Shown: piece by piece, positions 7,945 to 21,500 of the stretch | Numbering within the stretch: the first letter of the stretch is position 1 | Layout: each line of letters starts with the position of its first letter | NCBI GenBank assembly: GCA_017654855.1 | Contig: CM030332.1 | Location: 558,001 to 622,000 of the forward strand | Length of the DNA: 64,000 nt | Reading direction: 5' to 3' | From: Podospora anserina | Lineage: Eukaryota | Program-made: the position numbers and the translations under genes | Notes under the pieces: model-generated | Seen by the model: the letters and a program-made list of their open reading frames with translations, nothing else | Database searches by the model: none | What the model was told of the DNA's origin: nothing

Positions 7945-8056
7945 GGTGAGATGGCCGAGCGGTCTAAGGCGCCACGTTAAGGTCTTCCTTAATCAACATC
8001 TTCTAGCAAAGATTCCGTGGTCCGAAAGGGCGTGGGTTCGAATCCCACTCTCATCA
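7945..8056 (+). tRNA. tRNA-Leu(AAG) with 32-nt intron (7983-8014)
   Basis: Acceptor stem GGTGAGA/TCTCATC, D arm GCCGAGCGGTCTAAGGC, anticodon stem CCACG/CGTGG with TT-AAG-G, long variable arm TCCGAAAGGG, T arm GTGGGTTCGAATCCCAC, downstream T-runs. Confidence 0.95.
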
Positions 8057-8364
8057 TACTCTTTTGCTACATTCTCCAGTGCCTCTTTTTTTGCATTCTC
8101 CACTTATGTGCTCTTGCAAACCTGATTCATGGCTGGGATGTGTGTGGTGATGGTGCATCTTTTTGTCTTGATTTAAGAGCTTGCCGGGGCTTGATATGAC
8201 AAGTATGGATATATGAGAGATCAGACCAACTCGACGAGGCACCAAATCAATGAGAACATGCGAGACTTATACATTGTGTGTCGTTGCTTCTAAATGCTTT
8301 GAGGGGAATCATTTTGTAAACCTTTCTAACCCCGAGTTCAGCCCTGAACGCCGTATATGCTTTT

Positions 8365-9654
8365 TCATAGTTCATCAAACATGCTTGAGAGAAACGCCCC
8401 AGCGGCACCCAAGCCACCTACTGCGAGAGCAGGCTGATCCCATCGTTGTACCAAGGCTCCGAATCGGGGCAAGGTCTGCCAATACCAGACAGCGCCCATT
8501 GTGAGAGCTGTTATCCCAAGTCCTGCGAAGACAAGTCTGTCCCGACTAGGCCCCTGTTTGACGCCTTTGTATTCCAGCACTTGTTTCCTCCTCTTTTCAG
8601 CCCACCACCTTCTCCACACCTCTCCGATCCATGGCACTTCATACATAACTCCATGCCCAAGTCTCTGGTAAAGCTTGAGCCCTAAACCATGTGCCTCCGT
8701 CCCCTCGTCGACCCAAGGCAAACTCTCCCATCCTCTTGGCCCAGGACCAAAAGTCTCCCTCCCACAGTCTTCCACAAACTCAACCAGCCCCGTATACTTT
8801 TGCCTTGTCACCTCCGCCAACCACCTCCTCGGCACCCCCTCATCAACAATCATCAAACTAACCCACCCCAACACAGCACACCTCGCCCCCATCGTCAACT
8901 TGGCCCACTCAACCTCCCCAATAACATCCAGCACATCCTTGGCCAACCCCTCCAACTTAATTCTCCTCTTCTCCTCCGGCGTCATAACCTCCCCAACCGT
9001 ACTCGGCCCCCTCGTCAAACTAGCCGGGATGGATATCCACCCCGCCCTCCTCGCAGCAGCAGCTTCTTGTTCTTCCTTTTCCGTCTCGACGTCCGTGTCA
9101 AGCGATGACATGCCTAGGTGTTCCGCCCGGGCAGACATTGTCTGTCGGAGCTGGGCTGGTTCTGTCCATGGCAGCGGCATAGGCAGGATCTTGCTGTAGG
9201 CTGGGCGGGTGCTCGCTGCCCAGTTGGCGGAGGAGACGTAGAGGTAGAGGGCTATGAGGGGGGTTGCGTTGGCGGATAGGAATGTAGTGTAGGCTTTGCT
9301 GTCGGCTTGGATGGTGGGTGTTGGGGGTGGGAAGGTGGCATCGTGGAAGGAGGGTGGGGGGTGGGTTTGGAGGTGGCGGAGGATGGAGGTGTAGCCTGAT
9401 ATCCAAGTTCGGGTGGATGGGTCGTGGAGGGCGGGGAGGTGGTCTGTTTGTTTGTGTGAGTTAGTTATAGCTTCTAGAAAAGAGGGAATGGCAGGGCCAA
9501 ACATACGGGTTGGTACAGCTGAGGGGCTGGATTGTATGAGTTGGTAATCGGCTTTACTTGTGGTCTGAGCGAGATAAGCGATGGCGGCGATACACTCTGC
9601 ATCGATGGACGGCAGCCCGAAGGCAGGGCCCCAGACGTAAAGCTGGAGGGCCAT
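8365..9654 (-). CDS. SAM37: Mitochondrial SAM complex subunit Sam37/metaxin-like; in-frame intron 9444-9506
   Basis: N-terminal LYVWGPAFGLPSIDAECIAAIAY metaxin motif and C-terminal TM segment. A 63-nt GTATGT..CTAAC..CAG intron is read through in the ORF track. Confidence 0.85.
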   Translation of the reverse strand: MALQLYVWGPAFGLPSIDAECIAAIAYLAQTTSKADYQLIQSSPSAVPTRMFGPAIPSFLEAITNSHKQTDHLPALHDPSTRTWISGYTSILRHLQTHPPPSFHDATFPPPTPTIQADSKAYTTFLSANATPLIALYLYVSSANWAASTRPAYSKILPMPLPWTEPAQLRQTMSARAEHLGMSSLDTDVETEKEEQEAAAARRAGWISIPASLTRGPSTVGEVMTPEEKRRIKLEGLAKDVLDVIGEVEWAKLTMGARCAVLGWVSLMIVDEGVPRRWLAEVTRQKYTGLVEFVEDCGRETFGPGPRGWESLPWVDEGTEAHGLGLKLYQRLGHGVMYEVPWIGEVWRRWWAEKRRKQVLEYKGVKQGPSRDRLVFAGLGITALTMGAVWYWQTLPRFGALVQRWDQPALAVGGLGAAGAFLSSMFDEL

Positions 9655-12600
9655 GATACTGATTTTTCAGAATAACGCACCCACCAGTCGTAAATAATTT
9701 ACGTCGCGCACCTCAATGACCAACAGCTTGGAGCGTGTTGAGAGAATGCACGTCCTCACGTGGCGATAAGAGCTTACCCCTCCATTCAGGGTCCTGATAA
9801 ACTGGACATTTTCCAGAAAACACCAGGGCTTTGGTTTCGGAAATCGTAAATTCAGAGTGTGGGGAAGATTTCGTTCCCGCTCCTGCCGCTGCGCCCAAAC
9901 GACTCCACCAGCACCGCCCGGGAGAGATCATCGGCACCAGATGCATTGTCAGCAGCATGAACCCCAATTTCACTCGTTTCAGCATCCCACACTTCCTCTC
10001 CGATCTCGTTCCTGTCACTTCTTCTTCCTGTCAACTTGAAGCGATGCGCGTGATCAACCTCAAACCAGACTACCTAGAGCTCCGTAAAACAAATACCTCA
10101 AAGGCTCTGGTCGGCAGAAACCGAGTTTCATGTGCCCGAGATCGCATCAATCACAGCTGCCAAAAACCTGTCAATGACGTATCTCCCTTCTTGTCAACCA
10201 CTTCAACCCCTGGGATCTAGCCTCTTTTTCCCTTCTTCTTGGCCACTTTTGTTGCGCCTCGGCAACCACCACCACCACCACTGAGCACTGATCACCGCCG
10301 AGCCCAAAAGTTCCGACAGACAAGAACGCAACCAAACTTCGCTCCTCCAAAGAAAGAAGCGCCCCTTTCCCAAAAGGGGCAAAAATGGGACAGTTCCATT
10401 TTCGACAATGTCGCTTTCCATTTTCGTTCAGCTTCAACCATGCCAAGACAAGACTCAATCTCGTGAGCACAAACCACCCCCAGGAAAATGGTCAGTCTTG
10501 GGGAGTCTTGGAGGGTCTTGGACCAGCACTTGGTATCATCGTCTGCTCGTAAAAGTCGCCAGTCTCAGTCAGGAGGACGACATATCAACCCCGAACTCCG
10601 TTCCCGTTCGCGGGCCATGTTTCCGCCCGAATCTATCCGCTACCCGAGATCAGCTGCTCCATTCACAAGTGCTTCCTCTTGAACCCTCAACCACTGATGA
10701 TCCTACGGGGCATCAAATAGATGGTTGGGCTTGGCTCCTCCCCCTTCGGCTTCGGATGCGGGGGGTTGGTGGTTGGGCGGAGGATGCTACTGCACGAAAT
10801 AATTTAACAAACATGCAGGTCATGGTCTTGAAGGCCTCAACATCGAGCCACTTTTGGGGGTGGAAGAGTCAAGTATAGTAGTACGATGTGTGGGATGATG
10901 TCGTCGTGGCCTCCCCTTGGGGATCACATTCAGAAGGTAGGAAATATACCTGATCAAGACAACCCGAGCCGACCTGGAAATTGCTGCAGAGGCACACACA
11001 GCCTCCCTCTTTGGTGGTGATGGTGGTTGGCTGAGTCGTCTCATCTTGAGAAGCAGCGAAAGCAACGCTGGTGACAGTGACAACAAATGCCGCCCGATCG
11101 ACCGATATGCCCGCCGTCCGATGGCCGATCTCGTCTGCCTGATGAAAACCGTATCCACGTGGGTGAGCTGTTGTTGAAAGAGGAAAAGTGAGAAGAGCCC
11201 CTCTTTGACATGTGCTTGCGATGATGGGGTCCCCATTTCATGAATATGATATCGCGCGCTGGCGATATCTCCTAGCCTCTCTCCCTTGGTCCAACCGTCT
11301 CACTAATACGATAACTAGTATCCGCCCTCAAGAAGAAAAGCTCCTCTTTGATATCATGTCATTCAAGCCCTTTCAATCCCGTGCAAAAGTCCCGGAGCTA
11401 TTGGCAATGCCATTGAGGTCCAAAACACAGATCAAGGGCCGTTTAAACTTGATCACCCCTACTGTCCTGATGATACCCTACCCCTTCCACTTGTACGAAA
11501 ACAGCCCGACCTTGCGAGATCGCGTTCGTCGTCCAAGCGCGAAGTACCGGCGGCTTTTGTGGGTTGGGTATCATGCTCTCTCTTTTCGTTTTCCGTACTT
11601 GCTTTTGCGCCCTTGGCTCGTAACATTTTGTCGCGAGCGAGTCGTGTGTGTTTGGGGGAAGGGATATGTACATGAACAATACCCCCTCGCGGTACCATAC
11701 ATACAGTTGAGTTAACTCCAGGCACGCGAACCTGAAGTTTTTTTTTGGCTAGGTAGGTAGGTTCCACCTTGACAAAAAACAGAAACATGTCCCAAAAAGA
11801 ATAAAGTGTTGTTGCATGTGATCAATTTTTAATTATTATTTTTTTTTTTTGGGGGGATGTGTTTGCCGCCAAATGCGCGCCATAATAAGTTGAGAATGAT
11901 GCAAGCCGATGTTGCAGTGACAGAGGGGGAGGGGGGACCACAAGAATCATACATGACTCCACTGTGTATTGAGAGGCAGAGAGAGAGAGACTTCAATTCG
12001 ACAAGTTCTCAAACTGGATAAACTCAGTGAAGTCGGAAGGGGAAGGGGAAGGGGGTCGGTGGTGGATTGAACGACGAACCAAGACGTAGCAATTACCACT
12101 CTTCAACTGAGACCCCCACGCAATGTTCAGGGCGCCAAGTTGCAGAGAACCAAGATGAGGTTTTGATTGAGAAATGCATTGAATGCCCCGTGGGCCGATG
12201 AATATCGGGGGTGGATCATGGTGTTGAAACTCTCTTCTTGCGGATTTCCGCTTTCTGTTCTTCTTGCATGTGTCTGTGGATGAGGTGGGTGGGCGGGTGG
12301 TGGTGGTGGTTTTCTTGCGCTTCGGTCCGTGTGATCTATGGAGTCTCAAAAGGTTAGCGCCAAATTGTCAAATAAAACCCGCGGCAGAATTACGATGAGA
12401 TAATAAAAACAAGTTGTACCATGTTGGCGATTCATGAAGAACGGAGACACATTGGGCACAAATGCATGATATAGGATCTGTTGTTCAAAATATTGGGGGT
12501 TGGTAAATGGATAGTTTCTTGCATTGTTTGTGTCGCTCTCATTCATGAACATGAGAATAGCGAAACCAGAAAACTAAAGCTCCTCCCAAAAAAAAAACAG

Positions 12601-13520
12601 CTCGATGCAAATCCCATCATCGTAAATTCCTCTCTCCTTCTCATTCCCTTTCCTCCAATTCCATTGTGGGGTATCGGCGACCAATTGATAAAAACTCATG
12701 TGCGCCGTTTCCCAAAATGCTCCCTTGATTCATAGTGACGGTGGTGGTACAGTGGTGTGTAGAAAAATCCTTCTAATAATCCCCAAAGTTTGTTGTGCGA
12801 TAAAAATTCATTCGTAACATTGGAAATCTTGCATGTCGTGTCGCGGTAGTGTGGCAGTAGGAAAAAAACGAAAACCCGTTGATTAAAGTCGATACTGTGG
12901 TGGTTGGTGGTATTACAATGTGATGATAAATTGTTGAAATCCGTCCCGGAGTGGTGGTCCGTCAGATGCCGAAAAGCCGAAGATAATTAGAATAAAGCGA
13001 AAGTGTGAAAGTTGGAAGAGGTGTGGATGTCTCCCAATGAGCCGGCTCTCGGGGGGAAGGATGGCAAGACAGTTCCTGTCGTGGTGTGCAACTGAACTGA
13101 AGGTGGTGGTGGTGGTGGTGGTGGTGCCAGAAAAAGGTCGGCAATGGTACACAGCATGCTGGAGTGTTGACGTAGCTGGGAGAAAAATGCTGGTAGGCCA
13201 ATCAGGGCGAGAGCCTTTGGGTTGAGACGGTTGAAATGGCTATGTCGAGAATGGCTGTGGTGCATCATGCACGAAGCATGATGGCGTGCAGCTCACAGGC
13301 GTGGAATTCGTTGTTGTCGGAAACCAATGCGGAGACAGGAAAGCTGGCTCCGTTTTTGCAGCCTCGCATGCCCTTGATATGATTGCGTTCGGCCTGTCGA
13401 AATCTTCAAAGCGGATGTCGACCAGGCCTATAGACCCATGGTGAAAGCGGTAACAATGTGCTGTAAACCGTTGATATTCGAGTGGTGGTTGGTAGTTGTA
13501 GTTGATCGACTATCAACCCT

Positions 13521-13637
13521 TTAGCCCCTCTTGGGGAGAGGAGGCAGAGGGCGACTCGGGGGAGGGCCGGGGCAGGGGGGAAGCTGAGATGGTCTCTGAG
13601 AATCCATGGTGTAGGTCTGTTCGTTGTGGGCGGCCAT
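13521..13637 (-). CDS. Candidate 38-aa proline-rich microprotein MAAHNEQTYTMDSQRPSQLPPCPGPPPSRPLPPLPKRG
   Basis: ATG in a strong fungal context (CATACA-ATG-GCC) after a CA-rich 5'UTR-like tract; contains RPLPPLP. A second in-frame ATG (ACC-ATG-G) at 13607. Confidence 0.55.
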   Translation of the reverse strand: MAAHNEQTYTMDSQRPSQLPPCPGPPPSRPLPPLPKRG

Positions 13638-16600
13638 TGTATGGTGTTGAGGGGTTGTTGAGTGGGTGAGTGAGGTGGTGGTTGCTGGTGGTGGGAGTGG
13701 CTGGTAGATATGTCGTTGACAAGAGAGCTTGTGATGCTTCAATATTCTGATAATGAACTGATCAGATTGTGTTGGCTGATGATGGTTCGAGATGGTGGGC
13801 TTGGTTGGGGGGTGGGAGGAGGGCAGAGGCTCCCTTATGTAGCAAGCCGCGAACTGATAATCTCAAGATTGCTCGCAAGCCAGGATGCGCAAGAACAGCT
13901 TCACGGACAGGGCTGTGGGCAGTGAGTCCCGGTCATCCCCTGGCATGCTGGGCAGATGAGTAACGAGTACCCTGTTCGGGTCCGGAGGTACCTGGGAGGC
14001 CCTCAAACGCCCACGTAATTTGGCTGTGTCGGGATTCATGAGTCAAGTCTCTCAGGCCACGAGGGAGGTACTGCGACCGGAAAAGCAGCACAAAGTTGCG
14101 GTGACGCAGCCACGGCTTGGCAGTAACTCAAGGTTGCCAGGTTCTCGATGACCACCACGAAATAATGAAACACAGCATCACGCCCAGGGACTCCCTGTCG
14201 TTAATACAGCAACCCCTGCTCCGAGAAAAGCCACGGCTGCTGTACGTACCTTTCACTCCTTTTCGTTGCGCCATAACGTGAAATACCGAAATACGGGCTG
14301 CGTAATGCTGCGAAAATAACGCTGAAAGTCAGAGAAGCGGTCGATGGCAGCCGACCGACGCATGACGGCCGCTCCATGGATACCCACCCGGCCGCTCCTC
14401 CGGCGACTGTGTCGTCAATCCGGCATTCAACATCAGACTCCGAAGCTGTCAACCGGCGGTTGGGCATCGTTGCGCTGTTCTTGGGCTTGGTGTCCCCGCT
14501 CCATAGTCCGCCCCCTCACCACCACCTCTCCTACACGGCTGGTAGTATCGTACGTGCTATTACAATCATACATCCTCTGTGTGAGTCCCAGAAAATAGAT
14601 GTTGACGCTGCATTCGGCAGGAAAGCCGAGCCGCAGGACACGTTTTTCAGCGCGCAAACGGAAGCGTCCGCAGCACAGCGCATATCGCAGCGCATTGCCC
14701 AGCTCGAGACGCATCTCTGCCATGTCCGAAAAGGGCGGCACACAGCGAGCTGAGAAAGGGCGAAAGATCTGAAATTGAGGAATTGCAAATTTGGCACAGT
14801 ACAGCGCAGGCTGGACCAACTCCAGCAACTCCGGTCGAAGCCTCGTCTTGTCCCCCTTTGCTCGATGCTCCACAGCCAATTTCACCGTGATTACCAAGAA
14901 TCCTCGAACGGCATTTGTTGGGAATTCTGCATTTGTGCGAGCAAAATTGCCCACGCCAGGGCTTCTTCTTCAGGGGGGGCGGGGCCCATGTCAGCGCATC
15001 TTTCAGGGGCCGTACGCCCTGAAGGAGATTCGACTTTGCCGTCACCGTCACCCTTCCACGTCACTGTCACTGTAGACCTGGCTCAGGGGCTGGGCACCGA
15101 AACTACAAACGCAGCAAATGGAAAAATGACGGTGTACGGAGCAAATTAGAAGACGCAAACGCAGCCTAGAGGCGGTGACAGCTATCAAAGCAATGCCCAG
15201 CCTTTACTCCAAAGTACTTTGTATGCCCGAGGAAATTGACTTTAGGCCTACAATGTTTGAGAGAACGGAATTCCATCGGCGCAAAGAGCAAGTTCTGTTT
15301 CAGAAACAACCGTCTCTTCGATCTTTTAGTTGTCCGTCATTCCGCCAGGGGAAAGTTGAAGCAGCCGATGCAGGTCCAGGTCAGCTGGCCACCACACTGC
15401 AACCCATCCTTTTCGAAGAATCTTCTCATCGCCCTCGCCATCACGGACCGATCCCTGCCGCTCTCGTATCCTCCAAATCGGTGTCGCAAGACTGATGACC
15501 ACACCATCGCACGTTTCTGGGCGCCTTTGCGGGTGCCGTTCATTGCGCTCGTGGTATACCAAGCTTCCGAGAGATGACAAGTCATTACGGAACCACACAA
15601 TTCGCCATGATCACGGCCGAATGATTACCTGAATCCGTTGTGCGTCGTGAGCCCTCATGGTGCGTCGTTTCGTTTTCTGATCAGTGATATGGAAGTCTGG
15701 GGAAAATCCACTCGACAACAGCCGACCAGCCGAAGCATACCGAAATTGTATGGATCTGATGACAGGCGGCACTTCAGCGCACAAGCCCTTGCTCCGATCT
15801 TCCACCCACCGGGCTGAGAGAGGTTGAAAGAGAAGTGGATTTTGGGGTTTTCTTTTCTTTTTCCTGCCCCTCCGGTGAGGCCGATGAGGGGTCCCCAGCT
15901 GCGGTTGGCAGCACAACAACAACTTTCTGCGTGTCATCATCTGGAGATATTCCACTTTCAGCCTTTGGTCCGTTTGGTTCGTCCCAGAAGAATGGTGCTC
16001 TCGAAGCGTAGCATCCAGCCTCGTCAGCATTCAGCTCCTTACAGCACGGCTCACCCTACCAGTACGGAACCACCGTAATTACAAGACCAGTACCGTGGAG
16101 GAGCGGAACGGGAGAAAACGTCGGCTGTCCGCTCCGACGGTGGGCTCAACCTTCACACCCTCTTTTGTTTCTGACCTGGACGACATTCGTGAAGGTGGTG
16201 TGGTGGCGGTCACCCAAAGTAGGCCACCATTTGGCGGCCTGCCTCTTCTTATCCAGGAACAGGAACAGGTGCCCATCGCGAGAGCTCGATTGGCCCGGGT
16301 GACATGAAGCCCCACGTTTTATCCAACAACAACATTGTCCCGACGCAAGGCTATCATTTCCACGTCTTATAACCCCGCACTTACATCCTTACGACATGCA
16401 CACACTCACACCTCACATTTGAAAACTAAAACAGGGTTGGATTCATATGACTGAACTGATGACACCGCATTTCCATCTATATGTCGGTGTACGAGCCAGA
16501 CTGTCGCCAGGCGCGGGGCACACGATTAGGCATTGGCTGTCAACCTAGCCATATCTTTCCCGTTTGGGCAACCCGATTCAACCCAACCCCGCCTTTTGGT

Positions 16601-18471
16601 TTTTATGAGGCATTCACCAAGTGTCTATTACTGGGGGGGCATACCGGACACACGATAAGGCCGGTATACTACAAGGTACAGTGACTCACATTCACACAGG
16701 GCACTTGGACGCGTTGTCAACTGGGCAACTTTCAACCAGGGCCCGAAGAGCCGGGATGTGTAATCGGTACGGAGTAAGCAAGGAAATTCGGAGGATTCAA
16801 TGACAACCTCGATTTCATGGTACAGAGTAAATAACAGAAAGAAAATTCTGACGAGAATATGCGGCGGCCGCGGCACAGGGAAATCCACAATAAACAGAAA
16901 ACTAAAACATAGCGTGACCTCCGGCATTGAGGAAGATTGTTTGTTTCAATATGCAACCCGCCGAAACCACCGACTTCCATTACACATACGGATAACGTGG
17001 TCTCAGTCTCAGTTTCCCGACACGAAGGGTACACTCACTTAGACACCTCATGCAACTGCAATGTAATGCAATGCAGCAACGGGCCCGAGAAGAGTGCTTG
17101 GTGTTTCGTGGCCTGCGAGATTGTCCGCTTTTGGAATTTCTATATGACAGACTTTGCTCTGGTTCAATATGGCATTGATGGACGACTGTCGGCTGCAAGA
17201 GCGGCGGTATGAGCACGGCGAAGAAAACAGAAATATCACAACCCATCACGGCTTGGGCTGGGAATTGCCTCAACAGCCGCCCAGTGTCGCCTGCGCTTTG
17301 ACAGTCAAGACTCAAGCGAGCGCTTATTTGAAGCATAGCTGTGCTACTATGACATGGAACGGAGCAACAACTGAAAGACGACAGTAGCATTAACCGCGAG
17401 CCGCCGTCTTTCTCAGGTTGCGCGGCTAATTTGATCTTCCATGTGTCTGTTCTCACCTCGCCTCTTTTGTGCATACATGACATAGGACTGCAGCGCGCAT
17501 CTCTCCGTATTTTTGGGACGGCGTAGCATCGTCAATAATTTGGGCGGAAGCTGAAGGCGGCGCAGCACTGCCGGGAAGCATTCTTTCCAGCACTTTTCCA
17601 GCCACCAGCATCTGTCAGTCGTGATCTTTTTGGGGGAACACAAAGAATCAGGAGGGAACCGACAAGTCGACTTGGGCAACAAAACATGATCGGGCTTGGG
17701 AGCAACGTCAAAGGCCGCACGATAAGCGAGGAAGGAATTAGCCGATGCACTGTTCTTATTTCGTACATATTTCTCGATAGCCTTGCGCACTAAATAGCAA
17801 CAAACATGTTATCATGTGTCAGCATCATGAAGACTGATACAGGACGATATTCAGCACCACGCAAACTTTTTGATATTGGGCAGCTCTCGGTATCCAATGA
17901 CACGCGAGTCCGAGATTCGGATCGCGGCCGCTCGGTAGATTGTTTCAATCAATTGTCGACACACCATCAACCCCCAAAGTGTCTGTTTGCTTTTTGCCCG
18001 CAAAACGTTGGGGGCTCTTTTTGATGCAAGTAATTATCATGGCGAGCTGATATGCTGTATCACTCTCACTCAGCAGCAGGCATTATCTACAGTGCTGGAT
18101 GGCAACCCTTATAATGTACCTCGGCACCTACTCTTATCTCGGGTCCTCCATCTTCGTGTTCGTCTGCGCGTTGTTGATGATCATCACCGACTGCTCCCCA
18201 AAGCTCTCGAGATGGAGGGTATAATACGGGCTGAAATTCATCCCATCCAGGAACAACTCACCTTAGTGCTCACCTTCCCTTCGGCTTTCGGTGTAAGTCA
18301 GGCGGCGCAGTTCAGGTACCGTCGGGCGTCATCTCACCAACCACACACACCATATGAGAATTATCCTTCTCACCCACCCATCATCAGTCCCATCCACCTA
18401 CATCCCCGCTCCCTCAGCTAGCTAGCTTCAGTTTTTGTGATGCCCGAGATCAACGTCAGCAACAAGGAAGC

Positions 18472-18500
18472 CACAACAACAACAACAACAACAACAACAA
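18472..18500. repeat. (ACA)n microsatellite
   Basis: About 9 ACA units. Confidence 0.85.
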
Positions 18501-21500
18501 GCAGCACTTTCCCAATACGGACATGGTTTCGTGAGAACGTCTGTGCATTTCCACCGTGGAAAACTGGAGACCGGAGACCGAGCCCGAAAACGCCGCCGCC
18601 GAGTGACCCGGCAGCTTGGTACGGAAGGATGCTCCAACGTTCGTAAGACCGAAACCCCACATTCTTACAAACCCTCCCTTGCTTACACCATCATCATAAT
18701 TCATCACCACCCATAAACATCTTGTTTCATTTTTGGCCGGCTTTCCACAGCACCATCGCCGCAAACAAGAGTTTTTTGCATTTGCATTGCTACCATAGGC
18801 AGGAAAACATGATCATGCGTCGCAGGGCGAGCACGTGTAACATCCCGTGGACAAATCTGTGTAACCTTGTAATCCTCTTGCCCCTCATCTGTATCGGTTT
18901 GTTGATTGCCCCTCCCAAAAACACCAACAATCTCTCCGATGACGAATTCATCCCAAGAGAGGGAGAAAACTGATATCTTTCTTTTTTTACTGTCTCGCCG
19001 ATCCGGCTGAGTCGGGCGTTGTCAATCCTACGGTATTATTGCGTCTTGCAACCAACCACAACTTTGGGACCTGTCTTTGCCTGCATCAATTTCCGCCGAT
19101 TGGTGTCAGAGAATCCATCATCTGACCCCTCCTTCCACTCGCACAGAGTTCCATGCATCCACAAACTCTTCGAAAGAAAAACCCGGGAAGTTGGGCACGA
19201 ACGGTTTCGGCAAAAGGCGATCTTCTTTTGCCTGCAAGCAAGCGGTGAAGAAGTGGATTGGTTCAAGTCTTGTGCTTTGTGATGCTGCAGAGTGTGATGA
19301 TGGTGAAACTGGTGATTGCAATTTGCCTCAACGGCGGTGACAGTCGCAGAACTGCCTCATCAGCGAGGAGAAGGGCCCGAATTGAAATCTGGCTTCTCAT
19401 ACATACAGGCTTGTATGGTGGGGTGGGAAAGTTACATTCCAGCGATACATTACCTTCCGAACACCAAGAGTTTCCCAGCCTCGTAATTTTGATACAAGCT
19501 GAAAAAAGAATACACGGCCAAAACCGGGCTAGCCATCCCTTGTCATTTCACAAACATGGTGAAATTACCAATAACCAAATGAACAAAACCCACCCAAACG
19601 TGGAAACCTTCTAGAACATCTTCCGAACAGTGCTGTCAGGAATTGTGGGGGCGGCTTTCAATTTCCTTTTTCTCCCTCCAACCCAACCGCCTCCACTTGC
19701 CTCCACTGTGGGCATCACATGCAAAGATGCCAACCACCACACAAACGGCGGCATTCCTTGAATATTTTTTTCCTTTGACATGAGCCTTTTTCTTGTTGGT
19801 GTTGATATTTTTTTCCTCTTAAGCGCCGGAGGATGCGTTTGTTTGATTCTTCACCGCTTGTCTGTGTCATATCGACATCGCAGCAGCCGCTTCACGTCTT
19901 GGAGATTCCAGGCAGGCAGGCATGGTGGTCCCTGTCTCATTTTTGACGTCGTTTTTGGTTGTTCCTCTCTTTCTCTCTATCTTCGGATGCCGGCTACGGG
20001 ATTATCTTTTCTCTTTATTACGAGGGATCTTTGAAATACAGCCACCAGCCACTTTGCCTTGATTTGTGTTGATTGACCTGACCTTGTTGGGAAGAAAAGG
20101 TGGTCTGATTCACAACGTTTATGCTACACTAGCTTGTTGACGTTCTCTCTAGCCTTGTTTTTTATCACTGATAATGGGATATGCCGGAGGATTTGTAGCG
20201 CTTGGTGTGCATACACGGAGAGATGATGACGTTGCCCGAGGCCCTCTCAAACAACCCTAGACAACAGTTTTTCTTTCTGGGGTAATTTACATGGGGATTG
20301 GAGATGAGAGAGAAGCAACGCGGGATGTGGGTTCGGAGCAGCGGAGGGGTCTGCTCCGATGAAGTTGGTTTGATATCAACCAGCCTCTAATGCCGAGATG
20401 TCCGCCGGCATTTGTGTGTGATTGTCGTCGTTTTCGTGTTCCCTCGGGAAAGTTGGCAAAAAAACAGGGCTTTCACTCGAAAAAGATAACAAAAATCTGA
20501 CAGGTTTCTTTTTTCTTCTCTCCACGCACGGATGATTTACCAGACACTCAAATGTGCGGCTGGCTGCCGGGTGGGGTGGTATGTAGGTGGTGCCCAACAA
20601 CCAACAGACAAGGAACAACGGGTGCGTCGCCCGTGGAAAGCTGTAAGCCCTACCACACCTGCGAGGGCAGAAAAAAAGAGGCGTTCAATCCCTTCCCGGA
20701 GCTTATTTTTGTTTGGGGGATGAACCAAGCTGTCGGTCCTTCTCTTGCAGCTCTCATCACATTCGTCAGCCCATCGAAGCCCAAAATTGTAGAGGTGCAT
20801 ATTGGTAATGATAGTTTGGAGCCTTGCGTTCCTTCGAGGGAGTTTTCTGGGATTGATCATGACTGGCCAGGAAGAAAAGAACCAACCCGCATGGAAAGGA
20901 ATCGAAAAGAACAGTGCAGTAGCCGATTTTCTTTCTGGGCGCCATCACGTTCTTTTTTTGCGAGGCCCTTACCGTTGCAGTCTTACATATTACAAACTGA
21001 TGATTTCCGTGGGCTCGGGGGGGGGCTTTGACATCACCAACAACCCCGAACGGCTCTTGCTGCTTATCTGCCTTCCATGTCATACTGCGTATGTGGAAGC
21101 CTGGTTGTAACAAGGAAAGTTGGGATGAGGATGATACACCATGTATCGGCAGGCGAGTCGGGACGAAACAGCGAAAGGAAGCTTCCGGGTTTCTTGGGGT
21201 TGACTCGTTTATGTGTGCCCATGAATCACCACTTTGCGGTTTGTCATCATGTTCGTCTCAAGTTCTTGTCTTTTTGTCTTGTGTTGATGGAGTCTTCTCT
21301 CATCTGGAAATCCCGAGGAGGGCTGATCCATGTGTGGAGTCTCCAACCCCAGCTTTCAACAACACAAGTCCCCCCCCCAACCGAACGTTGCAGTTTCGCT
21401 CGTAAAAATAAAACACACAAGAACCCTCTCTGTTTCTTCTTCCGTATCACAAGGTTTCCCGGCAGTACGGTTACAGTTGTTGGGTCACACTTGTCTCTCA

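Follow-up and report, generated by a model that had tools for sequence, protein, structure and literature searches.

A conserved, unannotated small open reading frame of Podospora anserina predicted to encode a polyproline microprotein with a class I SH3-type motif

Introduction

VSL12 (VSLARRPLPPLP), obtained by phage display, is a class I ligand of Src-family SH3 domains that binds the one of c-Src with low-micromolar affinity, and the available part of the report describes its RPLPPLP core as a polyproline-II (PPII) helix whose Arg touches an acidic SH3 residue (PMC4140816). The sequence KPLPPLP of yeast Pbs2 (residues 93-99) is bound by the SH3 domain of Sho1, and neighbouring residues also aid binding, as given in the accessible sections of two reports (PMC12505296, PMC4904012; structure 2VKN cited there). 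According to excerpts of two further reports, the Pbs2-type kinases of filamentous fungi are without a KPLPPLP-type motif (PMC4987456), and the Sho1 protein of Botrytis retains its SH3 domain (PMC6397835). Here we describe a small open reading frame (smORF) on the minus strand of a 64,000-nucleotide stretch of Podospora anserina DNA (assembly GCA_017654855.1, contig CM030332.1, positions 558,001 to 622,000; the window), whose predicted peptide carries the core RPLPPLP and is conserved well beyond it.

The fungal arginine attenuator peptide is encoded by a short, 5'-proximal open reading frame (ORF) whose amino acid sequence is conserved across fungi. Lipopeptide pheromone precursor genes (mfa-1 / ppg2 type) combine a tiny ORF near the 5' end with an abundant transcript and a long 3' part. 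Transcribed units of P. anserina that had escaped annotation (nTARs) number 1732, with a mean of 1043 bp, and only the 332 longer than 1.5 kb were screened for coding potential, as far as the available part of that report describes (PMC9801653).

The core of the smORF peptide is identical to that of VSL12, which is synthetic and was selected on an animal kinase domain; VSL12 shows the competence of the motif and not which fungal domain binds it. From the Pbs2 motif the smORF core differs, over seven residues, only by Arg in place of Lys, and the contribution of neighbouring residues in Pbs2, as excerpted in those reports, parallels the longer constrained stretch of the smORF peptide. The Pbs2 motif is a short linear motif inside a kinase of 668 residues, whereas the smORF motif would be most of a free peptide of 26-28 residues. 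As in the arginine attenuator peptide and other conserved-peptide upstream ORFs (uORFs), the smORF is short (~24-28 codons), 5'-proximal and conserved at the amino acid level; unlike them, it has no conserved main ORF, and the distance from core to stop is not fixed. The gene is similar in architecture to the pheromone precursor genes, but its product lacks a C-terminal CaaX box, has an internal Cys and shows no sequence similarity to them. A CaaX lipopeptide precursor was therefore rejected: the peptide ends ...PLPPLPKRG or ...PLPPLPK and its sole Cys is internal. The nTARs share with the smORF unit the lack of annotation, a length of about 1 kb and the species complex, and the available part of the nTAR report mentions no conserved small peptide.

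Results

The smORF and its conservation among predicted proteins

The minus strand at 13521-13637 contains an ORF that an earlier note, made from the letters of the window, had described as a 38-residue microprotein gene missed by annotation, with two ATG codons in good context and the class I SH3 consensus RxLPPxP. The features of the ORF are as follows.

13521-13637, minus strand: ATG ORF of 38 codons followed by TAA, reading MAAHNEQTYTMDSQRPSQLPPCPGPPPSRPLPPLPKRG
13521-13607, minus strand: conserved smORF of 28 codons (MDSQRPSQLPPCPGPPPSRPLPPLPKRG) followed by TAA (13521-13523), delimited by conservation, the ratio of nonsynonymous to synonymous differences (pN/pS) and a frame control
13553, minus strand: start of the class I SH3-type core RPLPPLP, within the smORF at 13521-13607
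13608-13637, minus strand: N-terminal extension MAAHNEQTYT from the first ATG, lineage-specific and not conserved in relatives

Both start contexts were confirmed from the sequence (catacaATGG at 13637, the first AUG of the predicted mRNA, and tacaccATGG in frame at 13607). RPLPPLP fits the consensus, and translation of the entire window in six frames gave no second match (1 match in all); the loose SH3 patterns [RK]xxPxxP and PxxPx[RK] gave 101 and 112 matches, respectively.

The length of the ORF is uninformative by itself: when this C-rich strand was shuffled 2000 times by mononucleotides, an ATG ORF of at least 38 codons arose on the same strand in 1057 cases (53%). C makes up 37% of the minus strand at 13400-13900 and 45% of the ORF. 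Around the ORF each of the three minus frames runs for 82-113 codons without a stop, and 30 ATG ORFs of at least 38 codons lie between 11701 and 16900. The ORF is lifted above chance by its conservation in relatives and not by features visible in the window alone.

A word-index protein search with the 38-residue ORF and four further in-frame codons returned three matches, from Fusarium oxysporum, F. venenatum and Biscogniauxia mediterranea. When 1.84 billion representatives were searched exhaustively with phmmer at a cut-off of E up to 0.001, 36 cluster representatives were recovered (best E = 3e-10). Common to all 36 are a Met, two or three variable residues and QRPS(Q/H)LPPCPGPPPSRPLPPLPK; in most of them the protein stops at this point or two residues on. 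The alignment of 37 sequences has 15 invariant columns and 6 further columns conserved to 90% or more. Cys22 and its neighbours P20, P21, P23, G24 and P25-27 are invariant in 37/37, as are R29, P30, L31 and P35; P32, P33 and L34 are at least 90% conserved. Constraint covers all 22 core residues and extends beyond the SH3-type motif. The conserved Met is encoded by the second ATG of the ORF (13607), which gives a core of 28 codons; the 10 codons that precede it in the 38-codon ORF are particular to the window's lineage.

Named members come from Seiridium, Colletotrichum, Daldinia, Sporothrix, Grosmannia, Sodiomyces, Diaporthe, Dactylonectria and Fusarium. All are labelled "hypothetical" except one of F. 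oxysporum (P0017, "putative AC9 transposase"), and the Colletotrichum member is annotated at 37 residues. Most representatives are 100-284 residues long and carry the motif at the C-terminal end; the stretches before it (up to ~250 residues) are mutually unrelated and look like read-through of stop-poor leaders (P0004-P0032). Seven representatives run past the motif (P0003, P0012, P0015, P0021, P0031, P0033, and P0036). Two of these, from F. oxysporum (P0033 and P0036), read ...PPPNRPLPALPKRA... with no stop at the usual place, and a canonical copy is also present in that species (P0001, P0005); they may represent a diverging paralogue.

Searches for known families gave no assignment. Pfam returned 0 families at E up to 10 for the 3 members searched, Rfam gave none over 11800-14400 (best E 0.43 and 0.84, both under the gathering score), PDB sequences contained no match (best E 0.9), and the ESM Atlas gave no usable hit.

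Selection on the encoded amino acids

Metagenome sequences were scanned with one long degenerate pattern in which only the invariant residues were fixed and all third positions were free; neither the start nor the stop codon formed part of the pattern. The scan yielded 73 loci (L001-L073), which together with the window give 74 sequences and 55 distinct 66-nucleotide (nt) cores. An in-frame ATG precedes the core Arg codon in 73/73 loci, at a distance of 12 nt (59 loci), 15-18 nt (12) or 36 nt (2), and a stop codon follows directly after the Lys or two codons later in 73/73. Among 56 distinct ORFs the stop comes right after the Lys in 22 and after two variable residues in 34, the residues past the core Lys being RG, RC, SG, RN, KS or none.

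Variation among the 55 distinct cores is confined almost entirely to synonymous positions, the entropy being 0.13 bits at the first, 0.02 at the second and 1.38 at the third position of the codon. Synonymous switches occur between the codon families of Arg (CGN/AGR), Leu (CTN/TTR) and Ser (AGY/TCT); the Cys codon is TGC in 53 and TGT in 2. At the six codons left wholly free by the pattern, the amino acid is kept in 53-55 of 55 cores, with a pS of 0.75, a pN of 0.039 and a pN/pS of 0.053. Pairwise identity is 46% at third positions of the core, 97% at first and second positions and 28-33% in flanks aligned without gaps. The sense frame alone is free of stops in 55/55, and the antisense frame with coinciding wobble has stops in 17/55, which rules out an antisense ORF as the source of the codon periodicity. 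The locus thus holds an ORF under protein selection, and the definition of a long non-coding RNA by the absence of such an ORF does not fit it.

These data bear out the conservation in relatives, with a selection test, that the earlier note had proposed as a check: it is found in 36 protein representatives and 73 DNA loci. The proposed gene itself stands, on conservation, pN/pS and contig coverage, although as a unit of 28 codons; the first 10 of the 38 are not conserved. On this comparative evidence the locus is almost certainly an unannotated gene coding for a conserved microprotein.

Two features of codon usage were also observed. The stop codons of the 74 smORFs are TAA (39) or TAG (35) and never TGA. 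The choice of Pro codon among the 55 cores depends on position, the PPP triplet using mostly CCG/CCA and the other Pro residues mostly CCT/CCC, a pattern that may avoid long C runs or reflect shared ancestry.

Translation signals and promoter

The surroundings of the conserved ATG carry signals expected of a translated ORF. Position -4 is C in 74/74 sequences and position -3 is a purine in 74/74 (A in 68). The 160 nt upstream of the start contain no ATG in 58/74 and one in 16, compared with 2.17 ATG per 160 nt downstream. Further upstream, the alignment of 17 sequences shows an initiator-like block reading CCATCATCAGACC at about -175, which coincides with the ends of RNA contigs described below. 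A TATA-like box, TACATAAGG, is present in 26/41 loci at a median of -285 from the ATG (-234 in the window), and in the 17 aligned sequences this position holds TACATAAGG, CATATAAGG or TATATAAGA. These two elements and the blocks further upstream are collinear across the 17 sequences. In the window the elements are as follows.

13638-13799, minus strand: 5' leader of ~160 nt, CA-rich and ATG-free, with the first ATG at position 163 from 13799
13774-13785, minus strand: initiator-like element CCATCATCAGCC, block -178 to -167 relative to the conserved ATG (16 of the 17 aligned sequences have letters at this place)
13833-13841, minus strand: TATA-like box TACATAAGG, ~35-55 nt upstream of the contig ends
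13905-13920, minus strand: promoter element containing CAGCCCTGTC, conserved block -313 to -298
14091-14115, minus strand: upstream element GCTGCGTCACCGCAACTT at about -500, with TGCGTCACC in 17/17 aligned sequences
14160-14178, minus strand: upstream element containing GTTTCATT at about -560, a conserved block

Transcription of the locus

Twenty-four sequencing runs matched 13200-14000. Seventeen of them, guessed to be RNA (11 studies), contain 71-88% of the sampled words; in 6 DNA-like runs the set of words is complete. Contigs of three runs from three studies (X1, X3, and X11) and of one DNA-like run (X18) were placed on 8000-20000, and conclusions on transcription draw only on the parts that contigs cover. 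X1, X3 and X11 skip the 63-nt CT..AC intron of a Tom37-like gene, and GT..AG introns are skipped at 11187/11319 by X1 and X3 and at 14549/14621 by X1 and X11. X1, X3 and X11 were read as RNA-derived because they skip introns that X18 does not; X18 skips none.

The contigs of all three runs span 13136-13784/13795/13799, including the ORF, without a joint, and those of X3 and X11 also span 12495/12502-13092. The two blocks are separated by a repeat.

13102-13126, no strand: (GGT)8 / (ACC)8 repeat; read placement skips 13093-13135, which splits the contigs of the DNA-like run too

The word depth of the smORF block contigs is 146/596/2911 in X1/X3/X11, compared with 77/44/56 for the Tom37 contig and a flat 38-44 in X18, contig word depth being a poor measure of expression. 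The ends of the X1 and X11 contigs lie no more than 15 nt apart with no loose end, and the X3 contig ends at 13795 with a loose end; shared ends are a weak hint of a transcript boundary. Transcription would start near 13785-13800. Contigs from the metagenomes point to a similar unit: 14 of 29 that are shorter than 2 kb begin 130-330 nt before the ATG and run 0.8-1.5 kb past the stop, which is the geometry of the transcript block in the window. Poly(A) tails were sought on the metagenome contig ends to settle the strand, and only L033 ends in an A-run, which is uninformative. The minus strand is the probable one, judged from the conserved TATA, initiator, leader and Kozak geometry.

The region downstream of the stop codon

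About 1 kb of the presumed transcript lies 3' of the smORF. A blastn comparison of the window with the loci (84 high-scoring segment pairs) matched the ORF and the promoter blocks and nothing 3' of the stop. Downstream sequence of 800 nt or more is available for 61 loci, and the median length of their longest ATG ORF there is 111 codons on the same strand, versus 77 on the opposite strand; these ORFs are inconsistent in place, junk-like and mutually unlike, and the window has none in common with them. A main ORF downstream, as for a uORF, was rejected since none is consistent among the 61 loci. Conservation in this region takes the form of short islands that, within the window's subgroup, are collinear and conserved at the nucleotide level without wobble.

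12495-13520, minus strand: downstream part of the transcript, ~1 kb, putative 3' untranslated region (3'UTR), covered by contigs at 12495/12502-13092 and 13136-13784/13799 without joints
13263-13304, minus strand: 3' island GAGCTGCACGCCATC, conserved at the nucleotide level, with GCTGCACGCCA in 17/17 aligned sequences
13032-13061, minus strand: 3' island GAGAGCCGGCTC, conserved at the nucleotide level
12906-12922, minus strand: UGUA-containing 3' island, conserved at the nucleotide level
12868-12891, minus strand: 3' island TTTAATCAACGG, conserved at the nucleotide level
12809-12848, minus strand: 3' island, conserved at the nucleotide level

When the alignment of the GCTGCACGCCA island was judged by eye for a stem-loop, only a 4-bp UGCA/UGCA pairing was common, and no structure is claimed. 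We read the downstream part as a putative long 3'UTR with RNA-level elements.

Some loci, most of them from the Leotiomycete-like subgroup in which the stop directly follows PK, carry a different 3' motif, TGCATATTC, at about +324 to +418 (L005, L012, L023, L029, L031, L040, L046, L049, L066, and L068). Four of them (L012, L023, L040, and L066) also have GTTTCATCA at about +776 to +827, unlike the islands of the window's subgroup.

Taxonomic reach and neighbouring transcripts

A gene with conserved synteny lies downstream of the smORF.

8365-9666, minus strand: Tom37/Sam37 (metaxin-like) gene, interrupted by a 63-nt intron (9444-9506); conserved neighbour of the smORF, downstream on the same strand

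Its product is 93% identical to that of Podospora comata, with the intron read through, and 79-83% identical to those of Triangularia, which places the window in the P. anserina complex (Sordariales). A Tom37/Sam37 gene lies downstream on the same strand in 15/17 loci with at least 3 kb of downstream sequence and in 18/21 with at least 2.5 kb. The best named matches of the Tom37 proteins place loci with the Sordariales, Xylariales, Coniochaeta and Diaporthales-like fungi. All six testable loci with the stop directly after PK are nearest Diplocarpon (Helotiales, Leotiomycetes), and a second gene of L027 has its closest match in Cadophora (Helotiales; 62%). The smORF members cover at least 6 Sordariomycete orders as well as Leotiomycete-like fungi. 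Tom37 is only 30-35% identical between Podospora and Trichoderma or Colletotrichum, and the peptide core is unchanged. Present in both classes, the gene pair therefore predates the split of Sordariomycetes and Leotiomycetes, which occurred roughly 300 million years ago.

The smORF had been described as isolated in a gene desert. The window does not support this: RNA-derived contig blocks also lie at 9864-11823, 14261-15326 and 15213-16868. The suggestion that the ORF explains the non-coding DNA around it is likewise unsupported, as the surroundings hold other transcripts. Between ~9700 and 17000 there is no long ORF with a Pfam match. The unit at 9864-11823 (plus strand) has a 131-nt GT..AG intron (11188-11318) skipped in X1 and X3; neither a Pfam match nor a relative among the 73 loci was found for its ORF pieces (10285-10878 and 11209-11715). 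The transcript at 14261-15326 (plus strand), divergent from the smORF promoter, has a 71-nt GT..AG intron (14550-14620) skipped in X1 and X11; neither this block nor the further one at 15213-16868 has a Pfam match in the ORFs tested or a protein-level relative in the loci. One X11 contig of low depth has a 71-nt CT..AC joint at 17592-17664, which corresponds to an intron on the minus strand and suggests a further spliced transcript that has escaped annotation. At 16927, X1, X11 and the DNA-like X18 lack a base that the window has, owing to either a strain difference or an assembly error in the window.

Discussion

An independently transcribed microprotein gene whose product is a free polyproline ligand is the explanation that we prefer, and as a whole it carries about half of our confidence. 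The TATA-driven promoter (13833-13841, with the initiator-like element at 13774-13785) would give an unspliced minus-strand mRNA of ~1.3 kb running from ~13799 to ~12495. Its first AUGs (13637 and, in frame, 13607) would open an ORF of 38 or 28 codons and yield 38- and/or 28-residue forms, the conserved product being a predicted peptide of 26-28 residues, M-xx-QRPSQLPPCPGPPPSRPLPPLPK(RG). The rest of the RNA would be a long 3'UTR with short conserved RNA elements. An extended PPII peptide is expected because half of the residues are proline and the chain is too short to fold; such a peptide may act in trans as a free PPII ligand that occupies proline-recognition domains. The chances that the peptide is a trans-acting ligand of such a domain appear evenly balanced. 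Both Arg residues of the core stand before Pro, a bond that trypsin leaves intact, and the usual tryptic proteomics would therefore overlook the peptide.

The SH3 domain would be the first candidate partner, and the probability that it is specifically the target falls somewhat short of even. The peptide sequence fits the class I consensus (+xPhiPxPhiP; strict RxLPPxP), and an SH3 domain would be bound through the pseudo-palindromic core R-PLPPLP-K; the Arg and Lys on its two sides could allow binding in both orientations. The invariant N-terminal half (RPSQLPPCPGPPP) may add a second contact or specificity. Judging by the aligned representatives, the variable positions of the motif lie mostly where a class I ligand tolerates change: three of the four Pro-to-Ala representatives change the x position (RPLPALP in P0030, P0033 and P0036), but P0011 changes a core Pro (RPLAPLP) and P0031 a Phi position (RPLPPTP). 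Sho1 is a specific candidate partner, as a lead only, because the Pbs2 of filamentous fungi is reported to be without the motif and the Sho1 of Botrytis to retain its SH3 domain.

Several observations weigh against this explanation or parts of it. The 22 constrained residues exceed the 7-10 that an SH3 ligand needs, so that SH3 binding cannot be the whole story, and the N-terminal half with its invariant Cys is as constrained as the SH3-type core, which does not suit a pure SH3 ligand. One representative (P0011) reads RPLAPLP, altering the first Pro of the PxxP core. The 3' islands are conserved as nucleotides, which indicates that the RNA holds information beyond the ORF. The RNA nature of X1, X3 and X11 is deduced from intron joints, no run being recorded as RNA, and the contigs carry no strand, so that the minus strand is a probable assignment taken from the conserved sequence elements. 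Finally, both searches favour similar sequences, which somewhat inflates the apparent invariance and would miss diverged members; this bias does not touch the free codons or the signals for start and stop.

Two other readings of the peptide are improbable, to a similar degree. The first is a cis-acting nascent peptide whose polyproline stretches (PPCPGPPP and LPPLP) stall the ribosome, in an eIF5A- or polyamine-dependent manner, and so control its own RNA or downstream initiation. Polyproline runs require eIF5A, and the ORF holds one PPP triplet and three PP pairs. Conservation at the peptide level over ~22-26 residues up to the stop resembles that of arrest peptides, the ORF is 5'-proximal in a long RNA, and the restriction to TAA and TAG stops would also fit. 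There is, however, no conserved downstream ORF to regulate. Moreover, the C-terminal residues of known termination-arrest peptides are critical, whereas here the spacing from core to stop varies (0 or 2 codons) and the last residues are variable.

The second keeps a trans-acting peptide and places the key in the invariant Cys of PPCPG, as a lipid anchor, a redox, metal or haem (Cys-Pro) site, or the link of a disulphide dimer. The invariance of Cys22 and its neighbours, its almost uniform TGC codon and an N-terminal half that fits no canonical SH3 class would agree with this. Yet the C-terminal half is equally invariant and holds a strong class I core, the Cys is internal without a C-terminal CaaX, and no family or structure match for a metal or haem site was found in Pfam, the ESM Atlas or the PDB.

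Less probable again is a regulatory RNA that is itself the main actor and affects Tom37/Sam37 or other targets through its transcription or its 3' elements, with the smORF as an addition (a bifunctional RNA). The collinear 3' islands without wobble, such as GCTGCACGCCA in 17/17, the same-strand synteny with Tom37/Sam37 in 15/17 informative loci of two classes, and a contig depth relative to Tom37 that differs among the three runs are consistent with such a role. It cannot replace the coding reading, however, since selection acts on amino acids; conserved 3'UTR elements are ordinary in mRNAs, and in the window another transcript sits between the smORF unit and Tom37. Close gene pairs often remain together without functional linkage.

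An exon of a larger spliced gene, either a C-terminal exon or a first exon whose stop is spliced out, is very improbable. Most database models do place the motif at the C-terminus of 100-284 residues, and seven extend beyond it, but their N-terminal parts are unrelated and resemble leader read-through. The start, the Kozak context, the AUG-free leader and the TATA box are conserved directly upstream, a stop is present in 74/74, and the contigs are collinear over the region with no joint. A chance ORF in a C-rich promoter or leader, rich in Pro because CCN encodes Pro, is scarcely credible: 53% of shuffles equal its length, three frames are open and the strand is 37-45% C, but its amino acids are kept with saturated synonymous sites in 55 distinct sequences from at least 2 fungal classes.

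A free polyproline ligand encoded by its own gene thus remains the preferred explanation. The peptide strings were not found in a full-text search of about 8.4 million papers and preprints, and searches on micropeptides, smORFs and SH3 domains and on Podospora gave nothing relevant. The novelty would lie in a conserved microprotein of which nearly the whole is a linear-motif ligand. We offer a broader proposal only tentatively and regard it as rather unlikely in full: filamentous ascomycetes may keep an abundantly transcribed gene solely for a free, near-invariant polyproline peptide that carries the Sho1-type ligand their Pbs2 has reportedly lost. The peptide would be a dosage-controlled competitor or adaptor that tunes SH3 signalling or actin/endocytic assemblies, its 3'UTR elements would control timing and place, and the gene would be older than the divergence of Sordariomycetes and Leotiomycetes.

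Fungal annotation systematically overlooks microproteins, and the smORF is a case with unusually strong comparative support. The public "hypothetical proteins" of 100-284 residues at this locus would represent leader read-through around a 28-codon gene. The smORF has its own conserved promoter and transcript contigs, and it lies in the genetically tractable P. anserina complex. Its predicted peptide is a concrete candidate for a free SH3-type ligand in fungi, and it bears on what the SH3 domain of Sho1 may bind in filamentous species whose Pbs2, by the available excerpt of that report, is without the yeast motif (PMC4987456).

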